Origin: a phage
Sequence record: PZ445432.1
Strand: one strand, 5' to 3'
Length of the DNA stretch: 64,000 nucleotides
The notes under the pieces are model-generated. The model worked only from the letters and a program-made list of their open reading frames with translations. It did not search any database and was not told the origin of the DNA. Made by a program: the position numbers and the translations under genes. Below are positions 9,033 through 64,000 of the stretch, piece by piece (position 1 is the first letter of the stretch; each line of letters starts with the position of its first letter).

Positions 9033-9225
9033 AAAGTTTCTCCTCTAGTCCCATAATACGATTTTCATAAGAAGCACGCAACTTTTCAATTGCCAGCGCA
9101 CGCACTGTAACCTCATTAGAATTAATAGCTAACTGGGCCAGATCTTCTGTTTCCATACGTCCGTTGTAAATTAAGCGATATTTAAGGTGTTTCACATTCT
9201 TGGTCATTATTAAACTCCACTGCAA
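9001..9225 (-). CDS. hypothetical protein
   Basis: ORF from track. Confidence 0.4.
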   Translation of the reverse strand: MQWSLIMTKNVKHLKYRLIYNGRMETEDLAQLAINSNEVTVRALAIEKLRASYENRIMGLEEKLYGLLESESKK

Positions 9226-9580
9226 CTGTTTCTAGGTCTTCGTCAAAAAAACTAGAGTATGTATCTTTAAGATACTGTTTAATACTCCAAGTAATATCTT
9301 CGTATCCATCTGGACTACGTTGGTATACTTTTAACACTCTATTATACACAAATTCAAGATTACATTTTACTTCATCTCTGTCTTCATCAAACAAGCAATA
9401 TGGGTTATATGGCGATACATCTAGATTTGTTTCCACCCAATCACCAATAACGGTGGGGTATCCAGCACCATCTATATGAGAGTAATCACCTGTGGCAGCA
9501 AAGACAGCCTCAGCAATATCATCCACGCCCAGATGGAAATCACCACATGTAGATTCAACTATATAGGGCTTTAATTCCAT
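9182..9580 (-). CDS. hypothetical acidic protein
   Basis: ORF from track; conserved promoter copy upstream at 9603-9648. Confidence 0.5.
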   Translation of the reverse strand: MELKPYIVESTCGDFHLGVDDIAEAVFAATGDYSHIDGAGYPTVIGDWVETNLDVSPYNPYCLFDEDRDEVKCNLEFVYNRVLKVYQRSPDGYEDITWSIKQYLKDTYSSFFDEDLETVAVEFNNDQECETP

Positions 9581-9602
9581 ATCTTTCTCCTCTCAAATTT
9601 AT

Positions 9603-9648
9603 AAATCTATTATACATAAATTTTTAGCTGAAAGCAAATAAAATAAAA
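9603..9648 (-). promoter_or_regulatory. conserved early sigma70 promoter
   Basis: minus strand: tatttgctttcagc ... tatgtataatagat. Confidence 0.5.
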
Positions 9649-9679
9649 GCCAGGTCGACTAGCAACCCGGCTGATTAGC

Positions 9680-11506
9680 TTACTTAAGATTTAAGTGTTT
9701 TACTCTACCAAGAACTTCTTTTTGTTTCCCAGAATTGAAAGGCCTACTGCTAGGGGATCCCAAGTACCCGCAAACCCTACGTGTAACCTCTATTTCTTCA
9801 GACCCACAACTCGGACATACAAACCCACGTTCAGAGGCAACAGATTCACCCATATACCCACAGTTGAAGCACTCATCAATTGGTATATTAACACCAATAT
9901 AATGGCTACATTCTAGCCCCTTATCCACCACATACTCAAGAGCTTTGTGGAACTTTTTCATTTGAGGTAGTTCCACAAATGATATATTACCACCATTAGC
10001 TATTTTGGTAAAATGAGCCTCGTACTCAAATTTAGTATCTGGGGCTACCTTCTCTCTTACGTCCAAATGGTGACTATTAGTGAGATAGCCTTTATCTGTT
10101 AGCCAAGAATACTCTGGGAATCTACGTTCTAGTAATTTATTAAAACGATTACATAGAGACTCACTAGGAGTAGCGTATAAGCTAAATCCAAGATTAGTCT
10201 CATTAGCTTTAACTTCGCAACGATTTTTTAGGTGAGTAAGAACTTCTTCTGTAAATTCAATACAATCCCTATGGGTTTGTGGTAGACCAAACATTATTTG
10301 GCACATCTCATAGACCCCAATGTATCCAAGAGATACAGAAGATCTACCCTCAAAAATAGGCCATACATACTCTTCCCCATCTAAACGCACACCAAAACCA
10401 CCGTGCATATAAAGAATAGGGGCTTGTTTAGCCTTAACTTTCTTCAGTCTGTTTAAGAAGAAGTCATGCGCTTCAAAAGCCTCATCCACATATTTGTCTA
10501 GAATATCCCAGAAATCTTCAAAAACCCCATCTGCCTCAGCAGCAACCATAGGTAGATTAATAGACACTACACCTAAATTATTGCGCCCTGCAATTTCTCC
10601 GGAGGGGATAGCAGATAAAAAGCTACGACAACCCATAGGTGCTTTAAAATCACCAGTAACAGCTACAACTTTCTCATAGCTTAAATAGTCCGGGTACATA
10701 CGGGTAGCAGAACACTCAAGTGCTAGCTGTTTTATATCGTAGTTAGGATCGCCTGGATTTTTATTTAACCCTTCTTTAACTGAGAATACTAGTTTAGGGA
10801 AGATAGGGGTTGACTCAGCAGCACCTAAACCTTTAATACGGTTTTGGAGGATGGCTTTCTGAATCATCCTTTCCTCCCACTCCTGTCCTAGCCCAAAGCC
10901 AAGCGTAACAAAAGGAGTCTGTCCATTAGAGTTAAATAATGAATTAGTTTCATACTCTAGGGCTTGGAATGCGTCATAACACTCTTTTTCAGTGAGTTCA
11001 GTAGCATATACAGCAGCTTTCCTTTCATCCTTGAGCCAACGTAGACCACGACCCAGGTGCTTATCATAAGACTTTCTGACATAAGGGGCTAAAACCTCAT
11101 CGATACGATCAATAGAAGTGCCACCATACTGAGCACCAGATACTTGGGCAATAATCTGAGCAGTGATTGCACATGCAGTAGTTATGGATTTAGGAGTTTC
11201 AATATTTGCATTACCAATTTTAGTACCATTCTTCAGCATGCCACCAAGGTCTACTAAACAACAGTTAGTGTATCCCTGTGCCCTGTAATCCATATCATGG
11301 ATGTGTATTTTACCTAGATTATGGGAGTCTAATAGATGTTTAGGTAATTCTTGTGCTACTAAATACTTGTTGATTTCTCCAGCTAATAAGTCTCTTTGGG
11401 TATGGAACATCTCACTAGGCTTATTAGCATTATTATGTTGTAAGTCCTTATCAGCAGTTAGAGTGAGCAGGCCTTTGCAATTCTCAATTAATTCATTCTC
11501 TGTCAT
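9680..11506 (-). CDS. nrdD: anaerobic ribonucleoside-triphosphate reductase
   Basis: C-terminal glycyl-radical motif RRVCGYLG and CxxC...CPSC zinc site; 608 aa. Confidence 0.9.
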   Translation of the reverse strand: MTENELIENCKGLLTLTADKDLQHNNANKPSEMFHTQRDLLAGEINKYLVAQELPKHLLDSHNLGKIHIHDMDYRAQGYTNCCLVDLGGMLKNGTKIGNANIETPKSITTACAITAQIIAQVSGAQYGGTSIDRIDEVLAPYVRKSYDKHLGRGLRWLKDERKAAVYATELTEKECYDAFQALEYETNSLFNSNGQTPFVTLGFGLGQEWEERMIQKAILQNRIKGLGAAESTPIFPKLVFSVKEGLNKNPGDPNYDIKQLALECSATRMYPDYLSYEKVVAVTGDFKAPMGCRSFLSAIPSGEIAGRNNLGVVSINLPMVAAEADGVFEDFWDILDKYVDEAFEAHDFFLNRLKKVKAKQAPILYMHGGFGVRLDGEEYVWPIFEGRSSVSLGYIGVYEMCQIMFGLPQTHRDCIEFTEEVLTHLKNRCEVKANETNLGFSLYATPSESLCNRFNKLLERRFPEYSWLTDKGYLTNSHHLDVREKVAPDTKFEYEAHFTKIANGGNISFVELPQMKKFHKALEYVVDKGLECSHYIGVNIPIDECFNCGYMGESVASERGFVCPSCGSEEIEVTRRVCGYLGSPSSRPFNSGKQKEVLGRVKHLNLK

Positions 11507-28552: not shown

Positions 28553-28627
28553 TGGGGGTGTAATCGAATTGGCATAGGTACTGTACTTAAAATTCAGGTT
28601 TTGTGGGTTCGAATCCCAGCGAGGCGT
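28553..28627 (+). other. tRNA-like element (unresolved fold)
   Basis: gtgggttcgaatcccag T-arm; no canonical acceptor partner found by hand. Confidence 0.3.
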
Positions 28628-47553: not shown

Positions 47554-48161
47554 TGTTTACACAACAACCTATTCAAGTAGTACCAGATCATGAACTGAAT
47601 ACATGGGATTATAGCTTTAAAGATTTAACTGCTACTGTACAATTCAAATCTATGAAGCTAACCTTTGCACACACTAATATTAAAGCATGTAAAGATTTTG
47701 AAGGTAGGCTCAACAACGCTCGTAAGATTTTTGGTACGGCTCGGATTCCAGCTGATAACCTTATTAACGCATTAATAGATGCGGGCTATAAACTCGTGAA
47801 GGCTGAGGTGAACCGCCCTAGTACTCCAGTAACTGTTAGTGATCCGTGGCAGTCAGGGCCAATTATAAGGTGGAACAGTCCTAAAATAACGTCGGATTTG
47901 CACAATGTTCCATGCGGTGGTGCGCTGTCGTCTAATCAGTCCTATCGAGTTGGGGAAGATTATGGGCCTTCTGCACAGTTGAAACATACTCAAGAAGCTT
48001 TTGAATCTGACATGAAAAGCGTAGCACCTGCAGATGCTGGAGTTTCTAGGAGTTCTGTTTGTACTATTCATTTTAATAATCCTAGTAAACATGGAAGTCT
48101 AGAAGATGCTATTATGGGGGCGTTGGGAGCTGCTCTTAATGAAGATAAGAGAGGTAATTAA
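47553..48161 (+). CDS. hypothetical protein
   Basis: ORF from track. Confidence 0.5.
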   Translation: MFTQQPIQVVPDHELNTWDYSFKDLTATVQFKSMKLTFAHTNIKACKDFEGRLNNARKIFGTARIPADNLINALIDAGYKLVKAEVNRPSTPVTVSDPWQSGPIIRWNSPKITSDLHNVPCGGALSSNQSYRVGEDYGPSAQLKHTQEAFESDMKSVAPADAGVSRSSVCTIHFNNPSKHGSLEDAIMGALGAALNEDKRGN

Positions 48162-48886
48162 TGAGTATTAAAAAGAATTTAGCAGAGATTATTAAATTAG
48201 CTAGAGCTTGTAATGGAAAATGTGTTTCTCAACTTAATGAACTAGAGGCACATGCAGTAGCGTTTTGTGCAGAGTTTTATCCTGCATATATTAACGCTAG
48301 TGGACAGCCGAAATATAATAAAGATGCAGAAGAAGTTACGTTAGCTCCTTCGTATATTAGTATACGTCGTCTGATTCAAACTGTTGACCCTAATATTAAA
48401 GGATTTTCAGCAGATTCATTCCATGTTTTTGCGGATAAAGAACTCCCACATTTTAAAGAAGGAAGTGCAAAGACAGCCCTAGAATGTTATCCTAATATTT
48501 TGATGATTCCACCTAAGCAATGTAAGTATGATCATCTTCCTAGACTTACAAAGAAAGTAGAACCACCTTATTCTTCTCTATCTGAATTAAAGCTAGGAAT
48601 TGTATCTACACTTGCGCAGGTTCATCTAAGTATAGTTGACGACTCAACAACATCTAATCCAGTCTTAGATGCTGCACATTATGAAATTTTACGTGACCCT
48701 GAACAGGCTAGAAAAGTTGCGAAGTCTGTTAAGTTTGACATCTCAACAATTCTTGATACGATGCAAGATACGAGACCTAGAGGAAGTGTAGATTATTCTG
48801 CGCTAAATTCCGAGTCATCTTACCTAGCAACATTCCTTTTCATGGCATCGAAGGGAATCATACTCAAAGTCAATCACGATGTATAA
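48161..48886 (+). CDS. hypothetical protein
   Basis: ORF from track. Confidence 0.5.
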   Translation: MSIKKNLAEIIKLARACNGKCVSQLNELEAHAVAFCAEFYPAYINASGQPKYNKDAEEVTLAPSYISIRRLIQTVDPNIKGFSADSFHVFADKELPHFKEGSAKTALECYPNILMIPPKQCKYDHLPRLTKKVEPPYSSLSELKLGIVSTLAQVHLSIVDDSTTSNPVLDAAHYEILRDPEQARKVAKSVKFDISTILDTMQDTRPRGSVDYSALNSESSYLATFLFMASKGIILKVNHDV

Positions 48887-48902
48887 ACGTTAACAAAATC
48901 TT

Positions 48903-48931
48903 CTTGACATTATTTGAGCTGTATGTTATAA
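48903..48931 (+). promoter_or_regulatory. perfect-consensus sigma70 promoter (TTGACA, 17 bp, TATAAT)
   Basis: ttgacattatttgagctgtatgttataat; no ORF for ~1.7 kb downstream. Confidence 0.6.
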
Positions 48932-49225
48932 TAATCTCATAGATTAAAAACATCAACTTGTTTTTACCTCTAGGCCGTAGATTTACATCATTCCTCGTAG
49001 GAAAACACTTGATGACGGTTCTGTTCGCAGGTTCTCGTCAATTGTTCTTCCTCCCCGAGACTCAGGAGGATGTATCAAATCGCACGCGCCTAGAGGGGCT
49101 AACTCTCATGAAATGGGGGTATATTAACTTTTAAATAACTGATAAATATTTAAAGGCAATATCTGTGTTCAAGATGATACACCTGTTGCCGCTCATCTGC
49201 TAGGATGGCACAACACTTTCTTCTA

Positions 49226-50065
49226 GACTCCTAAGTTTCTAGGAAATTGATAAGCACAAATTCTAGAGATCGCACAAAAATATTCATCGGATTTGCACAT
49301 ATTCTAGGAAATTGATAAGTACAAAAATATTCATCGGATTTGCACATATTCTAGGGCAGTTTCTCTCAAACGTTACACATACTAGGCGGTTAATATAGGG
49401 CGGTTATAGGGAGGGCGGTTATTTCTAGGAGACATTTTTTGAAAACACATTTCTGGATTTTACTGTCGGATTTGCACACTGCATTTCTAGAAATTTATGG
49501 TCGGATTTGCACAAACGCCTAAGTTTTTAGGAACATATAATCTCTTGAAAATGGCAGCATTATTTCGGGCCGAAGGCCCATGATTGCCTGAGTTTTTAGA
49601 GCCACAGGAATTTTCACTTGTCAAGCTATTTTGCCCCATTTTGCTAATAAAATTTTACTTTTTCTGCACCTATCTCAAATTTCCCCAAATTATCTCAACT
49701 CTTCCCCAAAACCCCGCAAATCAGGTGCTCCGCACCAATCCTGCGCCCACACCATTCTAGCCTCCCAAATTTCTCTCGCTCTCTCATCTTCTCCTCAAAC
49801 CTATACAATCACACACCCTCTCATCGAAGTCACAAAAATTTCATCGGATTCGCACAAATAAACCCATGTCGGATTTGCACATATTCTAGCTAATTCCACA
49901 GGATTGATGCGCAGCATCGGATTGCTGGAGTTTTTGGGAAAATTCGTCGTCGGATTCGCACATCACAAAAGTTTTTAGGGTCGGATTTGCACACTACCAA
50001 AAATTGTCGGATTCGCACATACACGCCCGCACGTAACACCCGTGGAGCAATGTCGGATTTGCACA
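49226..50065 (+). repeat. array of ~12 direct copies of core tcggat(t/c)(t/c)gcaca, some inside longer ~50-bp repeat units
   Basis: repeated atcggatttgcacatattctag, gtcggatttgcacactgc, gtcggattcgcacat and similar, all on one strand. Confidence 0.7.
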
Positions 50066-50071
50066 AAAGCG

Positions 50072-50089
50072 CAGGGCAATTGCCCTGCG
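50072..50089. repeat. 18-bp perfect palindrome gcagggcaattgccctgc
   Basis: read directly. Confidence 0.7.
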
Positions 50090-50094
50090 ACTTT

Positions 50095-50335
50095 GAATGA
50101 GAATCATTATCATTTAAGAAGTGGAATGCAAATGATAATTATTCTCATTTAAGAAGTGGAATGATTCTCATTTAATAAGTGGAATGCAAATGATAATTAT
50201 TCTCATTTAAGAAGTGGAATGAGAACTATTCAAGAAGTGAAACGATTCTCATTAAAGAAGCGAAACGATTCTCATCCTAGAAAGGGAATGCAAATGATAA
50301 TGATTCTCATTTAAAAACGGAAGTGAGAAACACTG
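50095..50335 (+). repeat. tandem degenerate repeats of (g)attctcatttaagaagtggaatg
   Basis: about 8 copies with variants aagaagtgaaacg / aagaagcgaaacg / aaaaacggaagtg. Confidence 0.7.
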
Positions 50336-50344
50336 TTATTTAAG

Positions 50345-50452
50345 TTATCCACAGACTTATTAACAGCACGATTTGACTTGACAGAATCCTAGCCATTTTG
50401 AGGCGTTATCCACAGACTTATCCACAGCTTATTCTACTGTATAAATATACAG
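50345..50452. repeat. left inverted module with three DnaA-box 9-mers (TTATCCACA) and 16-bp palindrome ctgtataaatatacag
   Basis: ttatccaca at ~50345, ~50406 and ~50418; palindrome at 50437-50452. Confidence 0.7.
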
Positions 50453-50648
50453 TATTCCTACGCAGTGAATAATTCTAATATAGGCCTAAAACGTCCTGAA
50501 TCGCATTCTAGCGCGTTTTATTTTGGCGGGGATACTAAAACAAGGGCAAAACTGGAGGAGGCTTAGAAATTAGTTAGCTCGCTAACGATCACACAAGGCG
50601 ACACGTAACACCCTAATCATTAGCAGGCTAACCATCGCGGGCGCGGTC

Positions 50649-50669
50649 AAATGAGAATCATTCTCATTT
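50649..50669. repeat. 21-bp palindrome aaatgagaatcattctcattt
   Basis: read directly; related to the gattctcattt repeat unit. Confidence 0.6.
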
Positions 50670-50709
50670 GAGGATTGGGGGCACTTCCTGATAATTGCCC
50701 CCGTGATTA

Positions 50710-53907: not shown

Positions 53908-54015
53908 CTGTATATTTATACAGTAGGATAACCTGTGGATAAGTCTGTGGATAAGCCCTTATATCGCCGCCTATTGTGTCAAATCATTTTGTGCTGTGAT
54001 TAAGTCTGTGGATAA
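53908..54015. repeat. right inverted module with three DnaA-box 9-mers on the opposite strand and palindrome ctgtatatttatacag
   Basis: tgtggataa at 53934, 53946 and 54007; palindrome at 53908-53923; reverse complement matches the left module. Confidence 0.7.
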
Positions 54016-54039
54016 CTTAAATGATAGTTTTTCTCACTT

Positions 54040-54420
54040 AGGCCGATAGTTTCTTATAGTGATTATTTTTATAGTGATTATTTTTATAGTTATTATTTCT
54101 CATTAATTTATATGTATATTATATAATATGAAATAGTTAGTTGGCTAATGAGATTTTACGGGATTAGTAGTCTGCTAATGGTTCAGGCTGTTACAATCCA
54201 CCAGCACGATTATCATTCTAGTAATTATTAGTCTGCTATCTTTCTAATACACAACAACAAATAAAAGTCAATTAATTAATTTTATAAAATAACTCATTTA
54301 GTCTTGATTTTTAAAAGTCAATACCTTTTACAACTATTTTTCAATTTTGCTTTTATTAAATATTTGTTAAGTCGAAAATAAGCCGCCTAAAACGCCCTAG
54401 AAAGCGGTAAAATTTTCAGG
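54040..54420. repeat. AT-rich region with short direct repeats (ttatagtgattattttta copies; agtctgctaa copies)
   Basis: read directly; adjacent to the DnaA-box module. Confidence 0.55.
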
Positions 54421-58880: not shown

Positions 58881-59615
58881 ATGAATCAAGTTAAAACGAA
58901 TATTACCCGTAATTTCCCGCATGTTTCCCGCGTCATGATCTGGGATCTGGATGGCACTATCGTTAACTCATTCCATCGCGTAGCGCCTTGCTTTGATAGT
59001 GATGGTAATCTAGATCTGAATAAGTATAAAAATGAAGCGTGCAAACATGATTTAATAATGCAAGATACTTTATTGCCGCTTGTTACATATATGCGCCAAT
59101 GCATGAATGACGCAAATACTTTAAACATTATTTGTACCGCTCGACTGATGAGCAAGTCGGACTATTATTATTTGCGCAAACAAGGCTTGCGAGGGCGTGG
59201 GAATAGCAATATCCGTGTATTTTCCCGCGATACACTGCATAAGTATTTTGAAGCTGATAAAGTTAGCGAAATATACCACAGTAAGGACGCAGTTTATAAA
59301 AGCCACTACTTTGAGTTATTTAAGCAGTTATATCCGAACGCTGATTTCACGATGATAGACGATCATAAAGGTGTGCTAGCAGCGGCGGCATCATACGGAT
59401 TTAAAACGTTGGACGCGCAAGCCGTTAACGATATTCTATCAATCGGTGTTACATTGATAGGCGAAACCTTTATCGACGAATCTCTTGAGGATGATAATGA
59501 TTATCAGTTCCTAGTCGATCGCTTGCAATTATGTTGGGAAAGTATGACCGAGGAAGAACGCGCAGAATATAGTTGCAGCCCGCAACAATATATCGAGAAA
59601 CTAAAAGTTGCATAG
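58881..59615 (+). CDS. dmp: 5'-deoxyribonucleotidase (HAD family)
   Basis: MIWDLDGTIVNS HAD motif I; 244 aa from the internal ATG with GGAG RBS. Confidence 0.7.
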   Translation: MNQVKTNITRNFPHVSRVMIWDLDGTIVNSFHRVAPCFDSDGNLDLNKYKNEACKHDLIMQDTLLPLVTYMRQCMNDANTLNIICTARLMSKSDYYYLRKQGLRGRGNSNIRVFSRDTLHKYFEADKVSEIYHSKDAVYKSHYFELFKQLYPNADFTMIDDHKGVLAAAASYGFKTLDAQAVNDILSIGVTLIGETFIDESLEDDNDYQFLVDRLQLCWESMTEEERAEYSCSPQQYIEKLKVA

Positions 59616-59670: not shown

Positions 59671-59790
59671 GTTAGCATGATAATAGTAACGGGGGTGGCG
59701 GTTAGCAGACTAAGTATTTTCGCCCAGCCCACTGCACCCACCCACGCGTACGTAATCCAAAGAATTTGGCAAAAGTCATTTTAGCGCTAA

Positions 59791-63518: not shown

Positions 63519-64000
63519 ATGGCAAATGATGTATTAGTACCAGATCTTATGTCCCCTGAAGGGATGGATGTAATTGAAGCATATTTACAGTGTGGCAGCG
63601 ATGTGCCTTCTGCCGCACGTAGTCTTGGAATGTCTGAAATTGCTTTCCGAGATATTATGAATCGTAGCGAAGTTAAAAACTACTTAAATGATATTTTTAT
63701 GGAGAGTGGTTTCCGTAATAGAGATCGTTTATTTGGTGTTCTAGATGAAGTTATTAAGCGTAAACTAGAGGAACTGGAAGAAACTGGCATGGGTTCTGAC
63801 CAAGATATTATGGATATTCTCTGGAAAGCACATAAAATGAAAATGGAAGAAATGAAAATGATGGTAGAACTGGAGAAAGTGAAGGCAGCAGCCCGCACTC
63901 CAGCTAACCAGACCAACATCCAGAATAATATTATTGCTGGAGCTGGGGATCAAAACTACATGGACTTAATTACTTCCCTAGCTACTGGAGGTAAGAAGTA
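63519..64000 (+). CDS. hypothetical protein, partial (runs off window end; HTH-like N-terminus)
   Basis: GGAGG RBS; [20 protein letters not shown]-like segment; 3' end truncated. Confidence 0.45.

Follow-up and report, generated by a model that had tools for sequence, protein, structure and literature searches.

The repeat region described here lies in a 64,000-nt stretch of phage DNA (hereafter the window), between a rightward pre-early operon and the early genes of a T5-like (Demerecviridae) genome. The window was 100% identical to the record of Escherichia phage HildyBeyeler (MZ501074.1), and megablast returned matches in 448 phage records, mostly at 80-95% identity and nearly all T5-like by name. 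We consider it almost certain that the window comes from HildyBeyeler (Bas33, Tequintavirus) and carries the T5-family injection stop signal (iss), or 'Repeat Region 3'. The window is oriented as the T5 minus strand, and the gene order (dmp-A1-A2, with the pre-early operon, the non-coding region and the early genes) is as in T5. An untranslated stretch of ~1.8 kb showed colinear alignment with T5 9140-10936 (NC_005859), T5 9140-10149 corresponding to window positions 50718-49669 and T5 10219 to 49599. In this aligned part, the T5 RefSeq record annotates the 'injection stop signal (iss)', the end of the left terminal repeat and the major nick. The initial annotation, made from the letters of the window, had guessed at a likeness to the T5 injection-stop or first-step-transfer boundary; the guess was borne out by the colinearity with iss and by the repeat set, which is the same as that described by Davison in a comparison of 25 T5-like phages. 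In the published inventory, as here, palindromes are followed by IRD'-spacer-IRC' and its DnaA boxes, the DRE/DRC units, some nine DRD copies and, last, DRA. On this alignment the region is the already known T5-type iss non-coding region, including the end of the 10-kb terminal repeat, and finding it again is in itself nothing new.

Only short ORFs were found in 48887-50709, which the initial annotation had called ORF-free, and the region is not coding in relatives either. Across 27 genomes the indel lengths modulo 3 were distributed as 42/168/85, and the longest stop-free stretch varied from 89 to 200 aa. Moreover, no CDS is annotated in the homologous stretch of the T5 RefSeq record. Per-column conservation in 27 genomes was 90% or more over the non-coding stretch 49165-50560 and far lower in the ORFs on either side.

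At 48904..48932 on the plus strand, a sigma-70 promoter reads towards the repeat region. It had been noted as a perfect-consensus promoter, and all 12/12 positions agreed (TTGACA-17-TATAAT, with an extended -10 TG). Of 27 aligned genomes, at least 80-90% have retained TTGAC and TGnTATaAT, and the T5 promoter in the same place reads TTGACA-17-TATCAT. Downstream of the promoter, the plus strand at 48939..49240 is strongly structured, with a 5′ part that varies between phages and a conserved 3′ part. The predicted RNA fold of this stretch had an energy of -93.1 kcal/mol (z = -6.9), and its non-homologous T5 counterpart gave z = -4.5; this stretch of Bas33 is possibly a small non-coding RNA. An Rfam scan of 48.0-55.5 kb at E≤1 gave two weak matches outside the repeat region, neither of them credible.

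The first repeat array is built from the 13-mer TCGGATTYGCACA, which we identify as the DRD repeat of T5. About 12 copies had been counted initially. Ten exact copies were present between 49287 and 50065, all on the plus strand, and the count rises to 12 only if two decayed relics (~49265 and ~49916) are included; an eleventh exact copy was found inside an ORF at 47892. The enrichment itself was strong, with 11 matches in 64 kb versus 0.07 expected and 11 reached in 0/100 shuffles. The two longer units reported around the first copies were also real, covering 49237-49301 (65 bp) and 49302-49348 (47 bp) with a 13-mer at the end of each. The array falls into an outer group of four TCGGATTTGCACA copies starting at 49287, 49334, 49466 and 49501 (49287..49513, plus strand) and an inner group of six TCGGATTYGCACA copies starting at 49844, 49869, 49950, 49981, 50007 and 50053 (49844..50065, plus strand). 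The inner group is inside the terminal repeat. The outer group, whose first two copies belong to the long units at 49237-49348, lies beyond it and is therefore single-copy in the virion genome. The DRDs thus bracket the terminal-repeat boundary, with four outside and six inside here and three outside and four inside in a My1-like genome. Spacing between copies is irregular (25-132 bp). In related loci, 271/271 exact copies were on the strand pointing into the terminal repeat, and a whole-genome scan found hardly any DRDs, palindromes or perfect DnaA boxes outside the repeat region. It is a reasonable reading that the arrays are iterated putative binding sites for a phage or host protein, and this agrees with the motifs being kept while their flanks and the neighbouring genes diverge. 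A DnaA box was considered for the DRD and rejected: ATTTGCACA fits only 8/9 positions of TTWTNCACA, and the invariant TCGG extension would be unexplained.

Three copies of GGCGGTTA, probably the T5 'DRA', are located at 49385..49421 (plus strand). The motif occurs six times in the window versus 0.91 expected, is conserved in My1-like and Klebsiella phages, and has another copy at 59697, ~40 bp from the left terminus. An invariant GC hairpin, GGGCCGAAGGCCC, is found at 49567..49579, 20 bp outside the right-hand boundary of the terminal repeat, which was assigned by homology to 49599. Six loci have a physical contig end as their start (L003, L006, L008 = T5, L012, L022 and L024), and in these the homology began at window position 49598-49599; in a seventh (L017), the start was offset by 2-3 nt, further in. 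Together with a left terminus placed by homology at ~59737/8, this predicts a terminal repeat of ~10,140 bp, from 49599 to ~59738, and ends of Bas33 at record positions 97688 (the exact right end) and ~107827 (the left terminus). A 2026 study of Bas33 (PMC13250531) reported two-fold nanopore coverage over the repeat, with coordinates not given. The last 245 bp of the terminal repeat form the G-poor, CT-rich tract (49600..49843, plus strand), which the initial annotation had placed at 49600-49860. Its composition was as claimed, with G at 19/244 bases and a GC skew of -0.53 to -0.72 over 49600-49850; it is at least 90% conserved per column, and its start at 49600 coincides with the boundary at 49599. 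A My1-like locus (L041), also starting at a physical end, opens with this TTTTCAYTTGTCAA...TTTTGCCCC context as well. The left terminus, which would be the other cut site, has GGCGGTTA within 40 bp, joined in many relatives by a AATGAGACTCATTCTCAT palindrome. The centre of the 13-mer array is the end of the terminal repeat, not the calculated 7.9% stop point.

The homologue of the major single-strand interruption of T5 (the 7.9% nick) was mapped from the T5 annotation at 9748/9749 to 50068..50072 (plus strand), the nick falling at 50068/50069, 5′ of GCGC and beside a GC palindrome. This palindrome had been described as 18 bp long; it is present, but as the perfect GC-rich 20-mer CGCAGGGCAATTGCCCTGCG at 50070-50089, which on the minus strand looks like an intrinsic terminator of the pre-early operon. 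The tandem array that had been seen next to it was recovered by TRF at 50093-50335 (periods 23/35/58/104, scores up to 276). It consists of eight tandem units of 23 or 34-35 bp on the plus strand, each containing ATTCTCATTT plus AAGAAGTGGAATG, and four units hold the full palindrome AATGA(T/G)AATnATT(C/A)TCATT. The 7.9% point of T5 corresponds to ~50245, inside the 23-bp tandem array. A further palindrome, first given as 21 bp, extends to 25 bp (TCAAATGAGAAT C ATTCTCATTTGA, 50647..50671) and belongs to the palindrome family of the tandem array, which was also found at the left genome terminus of many relatives. A 132-nt inverted-repeat arm (T5 IRD'-spacer-IRC', 50321..50452, plus strand), described by Davison, carries two DnaA-box pairs, TTATCCACA gac TTATTAACA and TTATCCACA gac TTATCCACA, at 50345/50357 and 50406/50418. 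The partner arm (T5 IRC-spacer-IRD, Repeat Region 2) lies at 53908..54039 on the minus strand with three TTATCCACA boxes; the arms show 83% complementarity and have 3455 nt between them. The pairing of the boxes was conserved as far as Proteus phage 2. The box pairs, the inverted repeat and the three GGCGGTTA copies had escaped the initial annotation.

The palindromes were also compared with Fur operators, for which the consensus GATAATGATAATCATTATC, the 7-1-7 form TGATAATnATTATCA and the aerobactin box GATAATGAGAATCATTATT (quoted in PMC10665472) were used. Four sites were 1 mismatch and one site was 2 mismatches away from the 7-1-7 form, and 8 sites in the window (five of them in the repeat region) were within 2 mismatches of the consensus versus 0.71 expected. 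The aerobactin box has 15 consecutive bases in common with 50096-50110 (AATGAGAATCATTAT). With a PWM made from 11 published boxes, the repeat-region palindromes and one dmp site gave the top scores of the 64-kb window, the palindromes reaching 13-19 compared with 13.7-27 for the training boxes. No promoter obviously under the control of the palindromes was seen, and promoter-like matches in the tandem array were weak (9/12) and no more frequent than in shuffles. The half-site has changed to ATTCGCA in phages of the My1/DU_PP_V type. In Klebsiella phage KPN4 the DRDs are retained, but Fur-like palindromes (PWM ≥12) are missing from the homologous non-coding region, indicating that the palindrome array is not universal. 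In the library of papers searched, none linked Fur to the T5 iss. That the tandem palindromes are working Fur boxes, with host Fur-Fe2+ holding the incoming DNA in place of DnaA or alongside it, seems to us a long shot. Fur-Fe2+, abundant before infection, would then occupy at least five sites close to the 8% point and a further Fur-like site, which lies ~20-250 bp from the left terminus and is conserved between T5 and Proteus phages. If this were true, two-step entry would be tied to the iron status of the host, and the phage uses Fur-regulated iron transporters (FhuA, FepA).

The Bas33 region is homologous to and colinear with T5 'Repeat Region 3' (Heusterspreute 1987; Wang 2005; Davison 2015/2020). 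Common to both are the upstream promoter, the DRD 13-mers, the GGCGGTTA repeats, the G-poor end of the terminal repeat, the GCGC nick beside a GC palindrome, the 23-bp units with palindromes, and the DnaA-box inverted repeat with its partner arm 3.4 kb off. Bas33 has 10 DRD copies compared with 9 in T5, because a ~47-bp unit is duplicated. In addition, ~230 bp downstream of the promoter are non-homologous to T5, and T5 has additional sequence close to the terminator annotated at 9275-9296; with these parts counted in, global identity was 76%. The BF23 genome paper describes a long non-coding region at 8.6-10.3 kb, rich in direct/inverted repeats and DnaA boxes. The first-step/second-step border regions of BF23 and other Tequintavirus/Epseptimavirus phages differ in nothing of substance, with 8 to 10 DRD copies.

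We favor the reading that the region is a composite of cis-acting DNA sites, not a gene, in which an injection-pause module is combined with a terminus/packaging module. We put the probability of this reading at roughly 60%, and the two modules are divided by position alone. The pause module, to which we give a little under even odds, would occupy 50.07-50.67 kb and comprise the nick, the GC palindrome, the eight 23/35-bp units with AATGAnAATnATTCTCATT palindromes, and the two DnaA-box pairs in the 132-nt inverted repeat. It would be the DNA that is at the cell envelope when transfer halts at ~8%. This assignment is suggested because the 7.9% point and the nick map into or beside the tandem array, the DnaA-box pairs are conserved and the palindromes score as Fur boxes. 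Given that the halt takes place without new protein synthesis, the iterated sites are most likely loaded by proteins already present, with host DnaA, a Fur-like binder or a virion protein as candidates. The loaded proteins would hold the DNA until its release by the pre-early proteins A1 and A2.

The terminus module is put forward tentatively, at odds clearly below even. It would span 49.29-50.07 kb with the ten same-strand tGTCGGATTYGCACA sites, the GGCGGTTA repeats (x3) and the G-poor tract, centred on the boundary at 49599. Terminase would recognise and cut the concatemer here, generating the right genome end. Since injection starts with the left end, the right end would be the first to be packaged. 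The assignment draws on the homology starts at the boundary, the bracketing of the boundary by DRDs, the restriction of the DRDs to one strand and the recurrence of motifs at the left terminus. With respect to what is expected of a terminase site, the position is that of the predicted genome end, the boundary falls between the DRD groups, and the iterated motifs lie beside the predicted cut and are conserved in the lineage. The terS gene, annotated at record positions 1-483, is ~14 kb from the region and not adjacent, which counts against it. Pac sites with repeats on either side of the cut are found in P1 (pac hexamers) and SPP1 (pacL/pacR around pacC), and short-repeat arrays and a promoter adjoin the T7 terminal repeat. 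The terminus module would resemble these layouts in its iterated short motifs on both sides of the end-to-be, a promoter reading towards the end, and an end that is packaged first. It differs from the P1 and SPP1 pac sites in that the Bas33 array is much larger (~0.8 kb), terS is not adjacent, and the terminase role in Bas33 is a putative one.

In the literature the region is treated as iss, and the whole of it, DRDs included, could be one injection stop/restart device. DNA structure or bound proteins would block entry, A1/A2 would bind the DRDs or the palindromes to restart it, and the terminal-repeat end would be incidental. A2 fits this role in being an annotated DNA-binding protein that is needed for second-step transfer and that co-occurs with the DRDs down to ~57-74% identity. 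Its AlphaFold model (pLDDT 84, pTM 0.47) contains a small helical domain with weak Myb/HTH-like matches. The model gave no Foldseek match with E below 1, and the protein no sequence match to solved structures; the HTH fold hinted at by the weak TnpE/Myb/homeodomain-like matches is only a hint, which neither supports nor excludes A2 as the binder. However, the GGCGGTTA repeats and four of the DRDs are located outside the terminal repeat, at 0.6-0.9 kb beyond the 7.9% point. A single device also leaves unexplained why the boundary and the G-poor tract fall exactly between the DRD groups, in T5-type and My1-type genomes alike, and why related motifs recur at the left terminus. We regard it as somewhat unlikely. 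The model of Davison, in which the incoming DNA is anchored by membrane-associated DnaA bound to eight DnaA boxes in the two inverted-repeat arms, and A1/A2 form a restriction-like nuclease that cuts a palindrome right of the block, is in our view unlikely. Three perfect boxes and one variant box here and three perfect boxes in the partner arm include 6/8 of the perfect boxes of the scanned sequence, and their conserved pairing agrees with the model. As its own author stated, the other conserved repeats are given no role. The model offers no explanation for the tandem palindromes, the G-poor tract or the DRD array.

DnaA boxes, iterated sites and AT-rich DNA could also make up an iteron-type origin for a phage initiator, such as the T5.108-type 'replication origin binding' helicase. 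As in oriC-like DnaA-box clusters and iteron origins, paired consensus DnaA boxes lie beside AT-rich iterated DNA, here with 10 direct 13-mers, 23-bp tandem units and an array at 25-34% GC. The herpes UL9 box CGTTCGCACTT and the DRD variant ATTCGCACA have TTCGCAC in common, and T5.108 passes the Pfam Herpes_ori_bp model with 30.5 bits versus a cut-off of 20. However, the matched segment (profile 46-197 of 820) comprises helicase motifs alone and leaves out the UL9 DNA-binding domain, and for this reason the UL9 idea was dropped. The irregular spacing of the DRDs is unlike that of phased iterons, and there is no adjacent initiator gene, the flanking proteins matching only families of unknown function in PHROGs and Pfam. 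According to Davison, electron microscopy placed the T5 origins elsewhere, around the middle of the genome, and first-step DNA lacks the replication genes. An origin at this place is very unlikely. At the RNA level, the promoter would drive a long non-coding RNA in which ten UCGGAUUYGCACA copies act as a protein sponge and the CU-rich, G-poor tract loads Rho. The consensus promoter upstream is conserved, all motif copies are indeed on the strand transcribed from it, and the C-rich, G-poor tract resembles a rut site. Published RNA-seq of Bas33 (both strands counted), on the other hand, gave ~75 TPM for 49487-49639 versus ~1200 TPM for the early gene just upstream, indicating that little RNA reaches even the fourth DRD. 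Nor do the motifs occur in conserved hairpin loops, and their position on both sides of a DNA end belongs to the DNA level. The sponge idea is contradicted by this low coverage, and we hold the RNA reading to be highly improbable. Chance repeats or an unrecognised coding sequence deserve practically no credence. Small hypothetical ORFs do appear in some GenBank records, and stop-free stretches of ~100 aa occur in the G-poor tract; chance is ruled out by motif counts far above those of shuffles, and coding by indels with no preference for multiples of three, ORF lengths that are not conserved and the lack of a T5 RefSeq CDS.

The composite of a pause module and a terminus module bears on the stop and restart of T5 DNA entry, a question standing since the 1960s. 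Papers from 2020 to 2026 describe the function of iss as still to be tested; in those from 2023-2026 the signal is still termed uncharacterised, and functional studies are said to be lacking. The anatomy of iss is now divided into separable parts with named candidate binders (TerS, A2, DnaA and Fur), and the outer half (49287-49513), being single-copy, is open to editing with no need to alter the two terminal repeats. Bas33 is a laboratory model already in use for first-step transfer. Under daunorubicin, its expression was confined to the pre-early region, which fits two-step entry and does not map the position of the signal.

The DRD core was kept in phages with 65-74% A1 identity, despite different spacing and flanks. 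In metagenomic loci with distant A1 homologues (33-49% identity), the DRD was not found, nor was a DnaA-box or Fur-like cluster or a comparable array within 10 kb. One of these loci (L059) has an unrelated 63-nt tandem repeat within 10 kb. In Vibrio phage D332, the homologous gap is only ~560 bp long and holds one 19-nt duplicate.

The 1841 bp that carry the arrays match Escherichia phage HildyBeyeler (Bas33, Tequintavirus) at 100% identity. By megablast, 448 phage records contain related sequence, mostly at 80-95% identity, and almost all of them have the names of T5-like phages. The window strand corresponds to the T5 minus strand. The early genes end at 48886 and the pre-early operon runs from 50710 on the opposite strand, and A2, A1 and dmp come next, at 55.5-59.6 kb. 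In the T5 RefSeq record, an 'injection stop signal (iss)' is annotated at 9140-10149, colinear with the repeat region; the left terminal repeat ends at 10219 and the major nick lies at 9748/9749, both in the colinear region. Davison's comparison of 25 T5-like phages named the region 'Repeat Region 3' and listed the same elements as found here: palindromes, IRD'-spacer-IRC' with paired DnaA boxes, DRE/DRC units, nine DRD and DRA. A 2023 paper on the BF23 genome and two reports from 2026, a T5 preprint and a PNAS paper working with Bas33 itself, likewise describe the signal as a repeat-rich non-coding region. The iss annotation and Davison's matching inventory show that this is the T5-family injection stop region, as the initial annotation had suggested, and that it has already been described in T5 and related phages. 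What makes it interesting is how the stop signal works, for which the present mapping gives specific experiments.

The repeat region is a real, highly non-random feature. Reading of 48.6-51.0 kb and a motif count gave 10 copies of the 13-mer TCGGATTYGCACA at 49287-50065, all on the plus strand, plus one at 47892 in an ORF, against 0.07 expected; the same-strand enrichment proposed by the initial annotation held, with 10 copies in place of about 12. Copies 1 and 2 were embedded in longer units (65 and 47 bp), as had been described, and the G-poor plus strand noted for 49600-49860 was recovered as 19 G in 244 nt at 49600-49843. The palindrome given as 18 bp at 50072-50089 proved to be a perfect GC palindrome of 20 bp (50070-50089), and the related one, given as 21 bp at 50649-50669, extends over 25 bp (50647-50671) and belongs to the family of the tandem-array palindromes. 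Tandem Repeats Finder returned periods of 23/35/58/104 across 50096-50329, interpreted as eight units that are each 23 or 34-35 bp long, in line with the estimate of about eight copies. Every unit contained ATTCTCATTT and AAGAAGTGGAATG, and four of the eight a full palindrome. Three elements had been missed: GGCGGTTA, present three times at 49385-49421; two DnaA-box pairs (50345-50426); and a 132-nt inverted repeat whose partner arm lies 3.4 kb distant at 53908-54039. Directly past that arm, three tandem copies of TATAGTGATTATTTT were read from the sequence (54046-54095; Repeat Region 1/2 homologue).

Fifty-seven loci, anchored on A1, were fetched for comparison. All close relatives with the region covered had 8-10 copies of the 13-mer, including nine in T5 in the same order as here. 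DU_PP_V/My1-type phages had 6-7 copies with different spacing, Klebsiella phage KPN4 carried it as TCGGAT(T/A)TGCACA, and it was not found in loci with 33-49% A1 identity. All exact 13-mers (271/271) lay on one strand, and the logo of 220 copies read tGTCGGATT(T/C)GCACA. The ORF-internal copy (47892-47904) is exact, lies 1.4 kb from the array in a 202-aa early ORF (T5.019 homologue) and is conserved at the corresponding position in T5 (12153) and most relatives. A scan of the remaining HildyBeyeler genome found no further palindrome cluster and one extra 13-mer with one mismatch. Proteus phage 2 (Novosibvirus; locus L063, 4951-5138 and 6117-6270) has a homologous non-coding region lacking the 13-mer, in which about ten G-poor 15/18-nt units (CCCACCATTCTATTATTC) and a 46-nt triplet are followed by a DnaA-box pair; the architecture is retained with other motifs in place.

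In a 27-genome MAFFT alignment, columns 49165-50560 were mostly at least 90% conserved, whereas the flanking ORFs were far less so. Indel lengths modulo 3 (42/168/85) did not favour multiples of three, and the longest stop-free stretch varied from 89 to 200 aa. The region is non-coding, as the ORF-free description had it, and strongly constrained; coding in homologous phages was not borne out. The perfect-consensus promoter was confirmed at 48904-48932 (12/12, with an extended -10). The roughly 300 nt downstream of it (48939-49240, plus strand) are much more stably folded than shuffled versions (z = -6.9), as is the T5 counterpart (L002 10545-10848, minus strand; z = -4.5); the central 150 nt are non-homologous between the two phages. 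This stretch may encode a small structured RNA; Rfam gave no match for it.

The terminal-repeat boundary falls inside the 13-mer array. In six loci, one of them T5, that start at a physical contig end, homology to the window began at 49598-49599, and in a seventh (L017) 2-3 nt further in; T5 10219 maps to the same base (49599). Because the left terminus maps to ~59737/8, the terminal repeat is ~10,140 bp. Its first base is the start of the G-poor tract. Four 13-mers lie outside the boundary (nearest 86 bp) and six inside (nearest 245 bp). A My1-like genome (~65% A1 identity) is bracketed likewise, 3 outside and 4 inside, and shares the local context, an outside T-run and then TTTTCAYTTGTCAA...TTTTGCCCC inside. 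A GCCAC(A/T)G-like word occurs at both terminal-repeat ends (GAGCCACAGG at 49599 and CCCACTGCAC at ~59728). By mapping, the T5 nick falls at 50068|50069, with the last 13-mer on one side and the GC palindrome on the other; this palindrome resembles a terminator for the pre-early operon. The calculated 7.9% point falls at ~50245, within the tandem array.

From this layout we infer that the region has two modules. On the side of the pre-early genes, the nick and GC palindrome, the tandem palindromes and the DnaA-box inverted repeat coincide with the stop point and would plausibly form a pause module, loaded by proteins already present before any phage gene is expressed and released by A1/A2. The second half (13-mers, GGCGGTTA, G-poor tract) is centred on the terminal-repeat boundary, where packaging should start, given that injection begins with the left end and packaging therefore with the right. 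The pac sites of P1 and SPP1 have iterated sites either side of the cut, which the sites flanking this boundary on both sides would resemble, and T7 has a right-end promoter, to which the conserved promoter reading towards the end here may be likened. For the 13-mers, the classical view, in which every array works through A2 in stop and restart, is about equally likely. A replication origin is a weaker reading: the herpes UL9 box CGTTCGCACTT has TTCGCAC in common with a 13-mer variant, but the match of T5.108 to Herpes_ori_bp is limited to helicase motifs. This T5 'replication origin binding' protein (L061 1546-4332) reaches the Pfam threshold and has a partial homologue at the window start. 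Action at the RNA level is also weaker, as Bas33 RNA-seq gave ~75 TPM at 49487-49639 versus ~1200 TPM in the upstream gene.

The palindromes could also be candidate boxes for host Fur. Five AATGA(T/G)AATnATT(C/A)TCATT sites were 1-2 mismatches off the Fur 7-1-7 consensus, 8 sites this close to it were observed in the window against 0.71 expected, and one site matches the aerobactin Fur box, as cited in PMC10665472, over 15 consecutive bases. When a crude PWM was built from the 11 boxes cited in that paper, these palindromes and a perfect site in dmp (59487-59511) ranked above everything else in the window. However, in My1/DU_PP_V the half-site has drifted to ATTCGCA, and KPN4 lacks such sites in the repeat region. 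A literature search found no paper linking Fur to this region. The dmp site TGATAATGATTATCA, a perfect 7-1-7 match with the best score, lies ~230-250 bp from the left terminus and is kept in place in T5, Klebsiella KPN4 and Proteus phage 2 although the encoded residues differ, which hints at constraint at the DNA level.

In many relatives, AATGAGACTCATTCTCAT, a further palindrome of this family, stands beside GGGCGGTAA no more than 40 bp from the left terminus. A left terminus of GGGCGGTAATGAGACTCATTCTCAT...CCACTGGAC, the counterpart of window 59690-59740, ends many of them (3' ends of comparison loci L004, L005, L013, L016, L038, L039 and L040) and has the palindrome and GGCGGTWA families in common with the repeat region; T5 and Bas33 carry a degenerate version, GGCGGTTAGCAGACTAAGTATT.

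The window does not match MZ501074.1 as one continuous segment: it lacks 5,041 bp from within the tRNA region (record ~71667-76706), with the junction at 28604-28618 in a common 14-nt tRNA T-arm sequence, GGGTTCGAATCCCA, which would yield a hybrid tRNA, and its last 482 nt (63519-64000) wrap round to the record start (terS).
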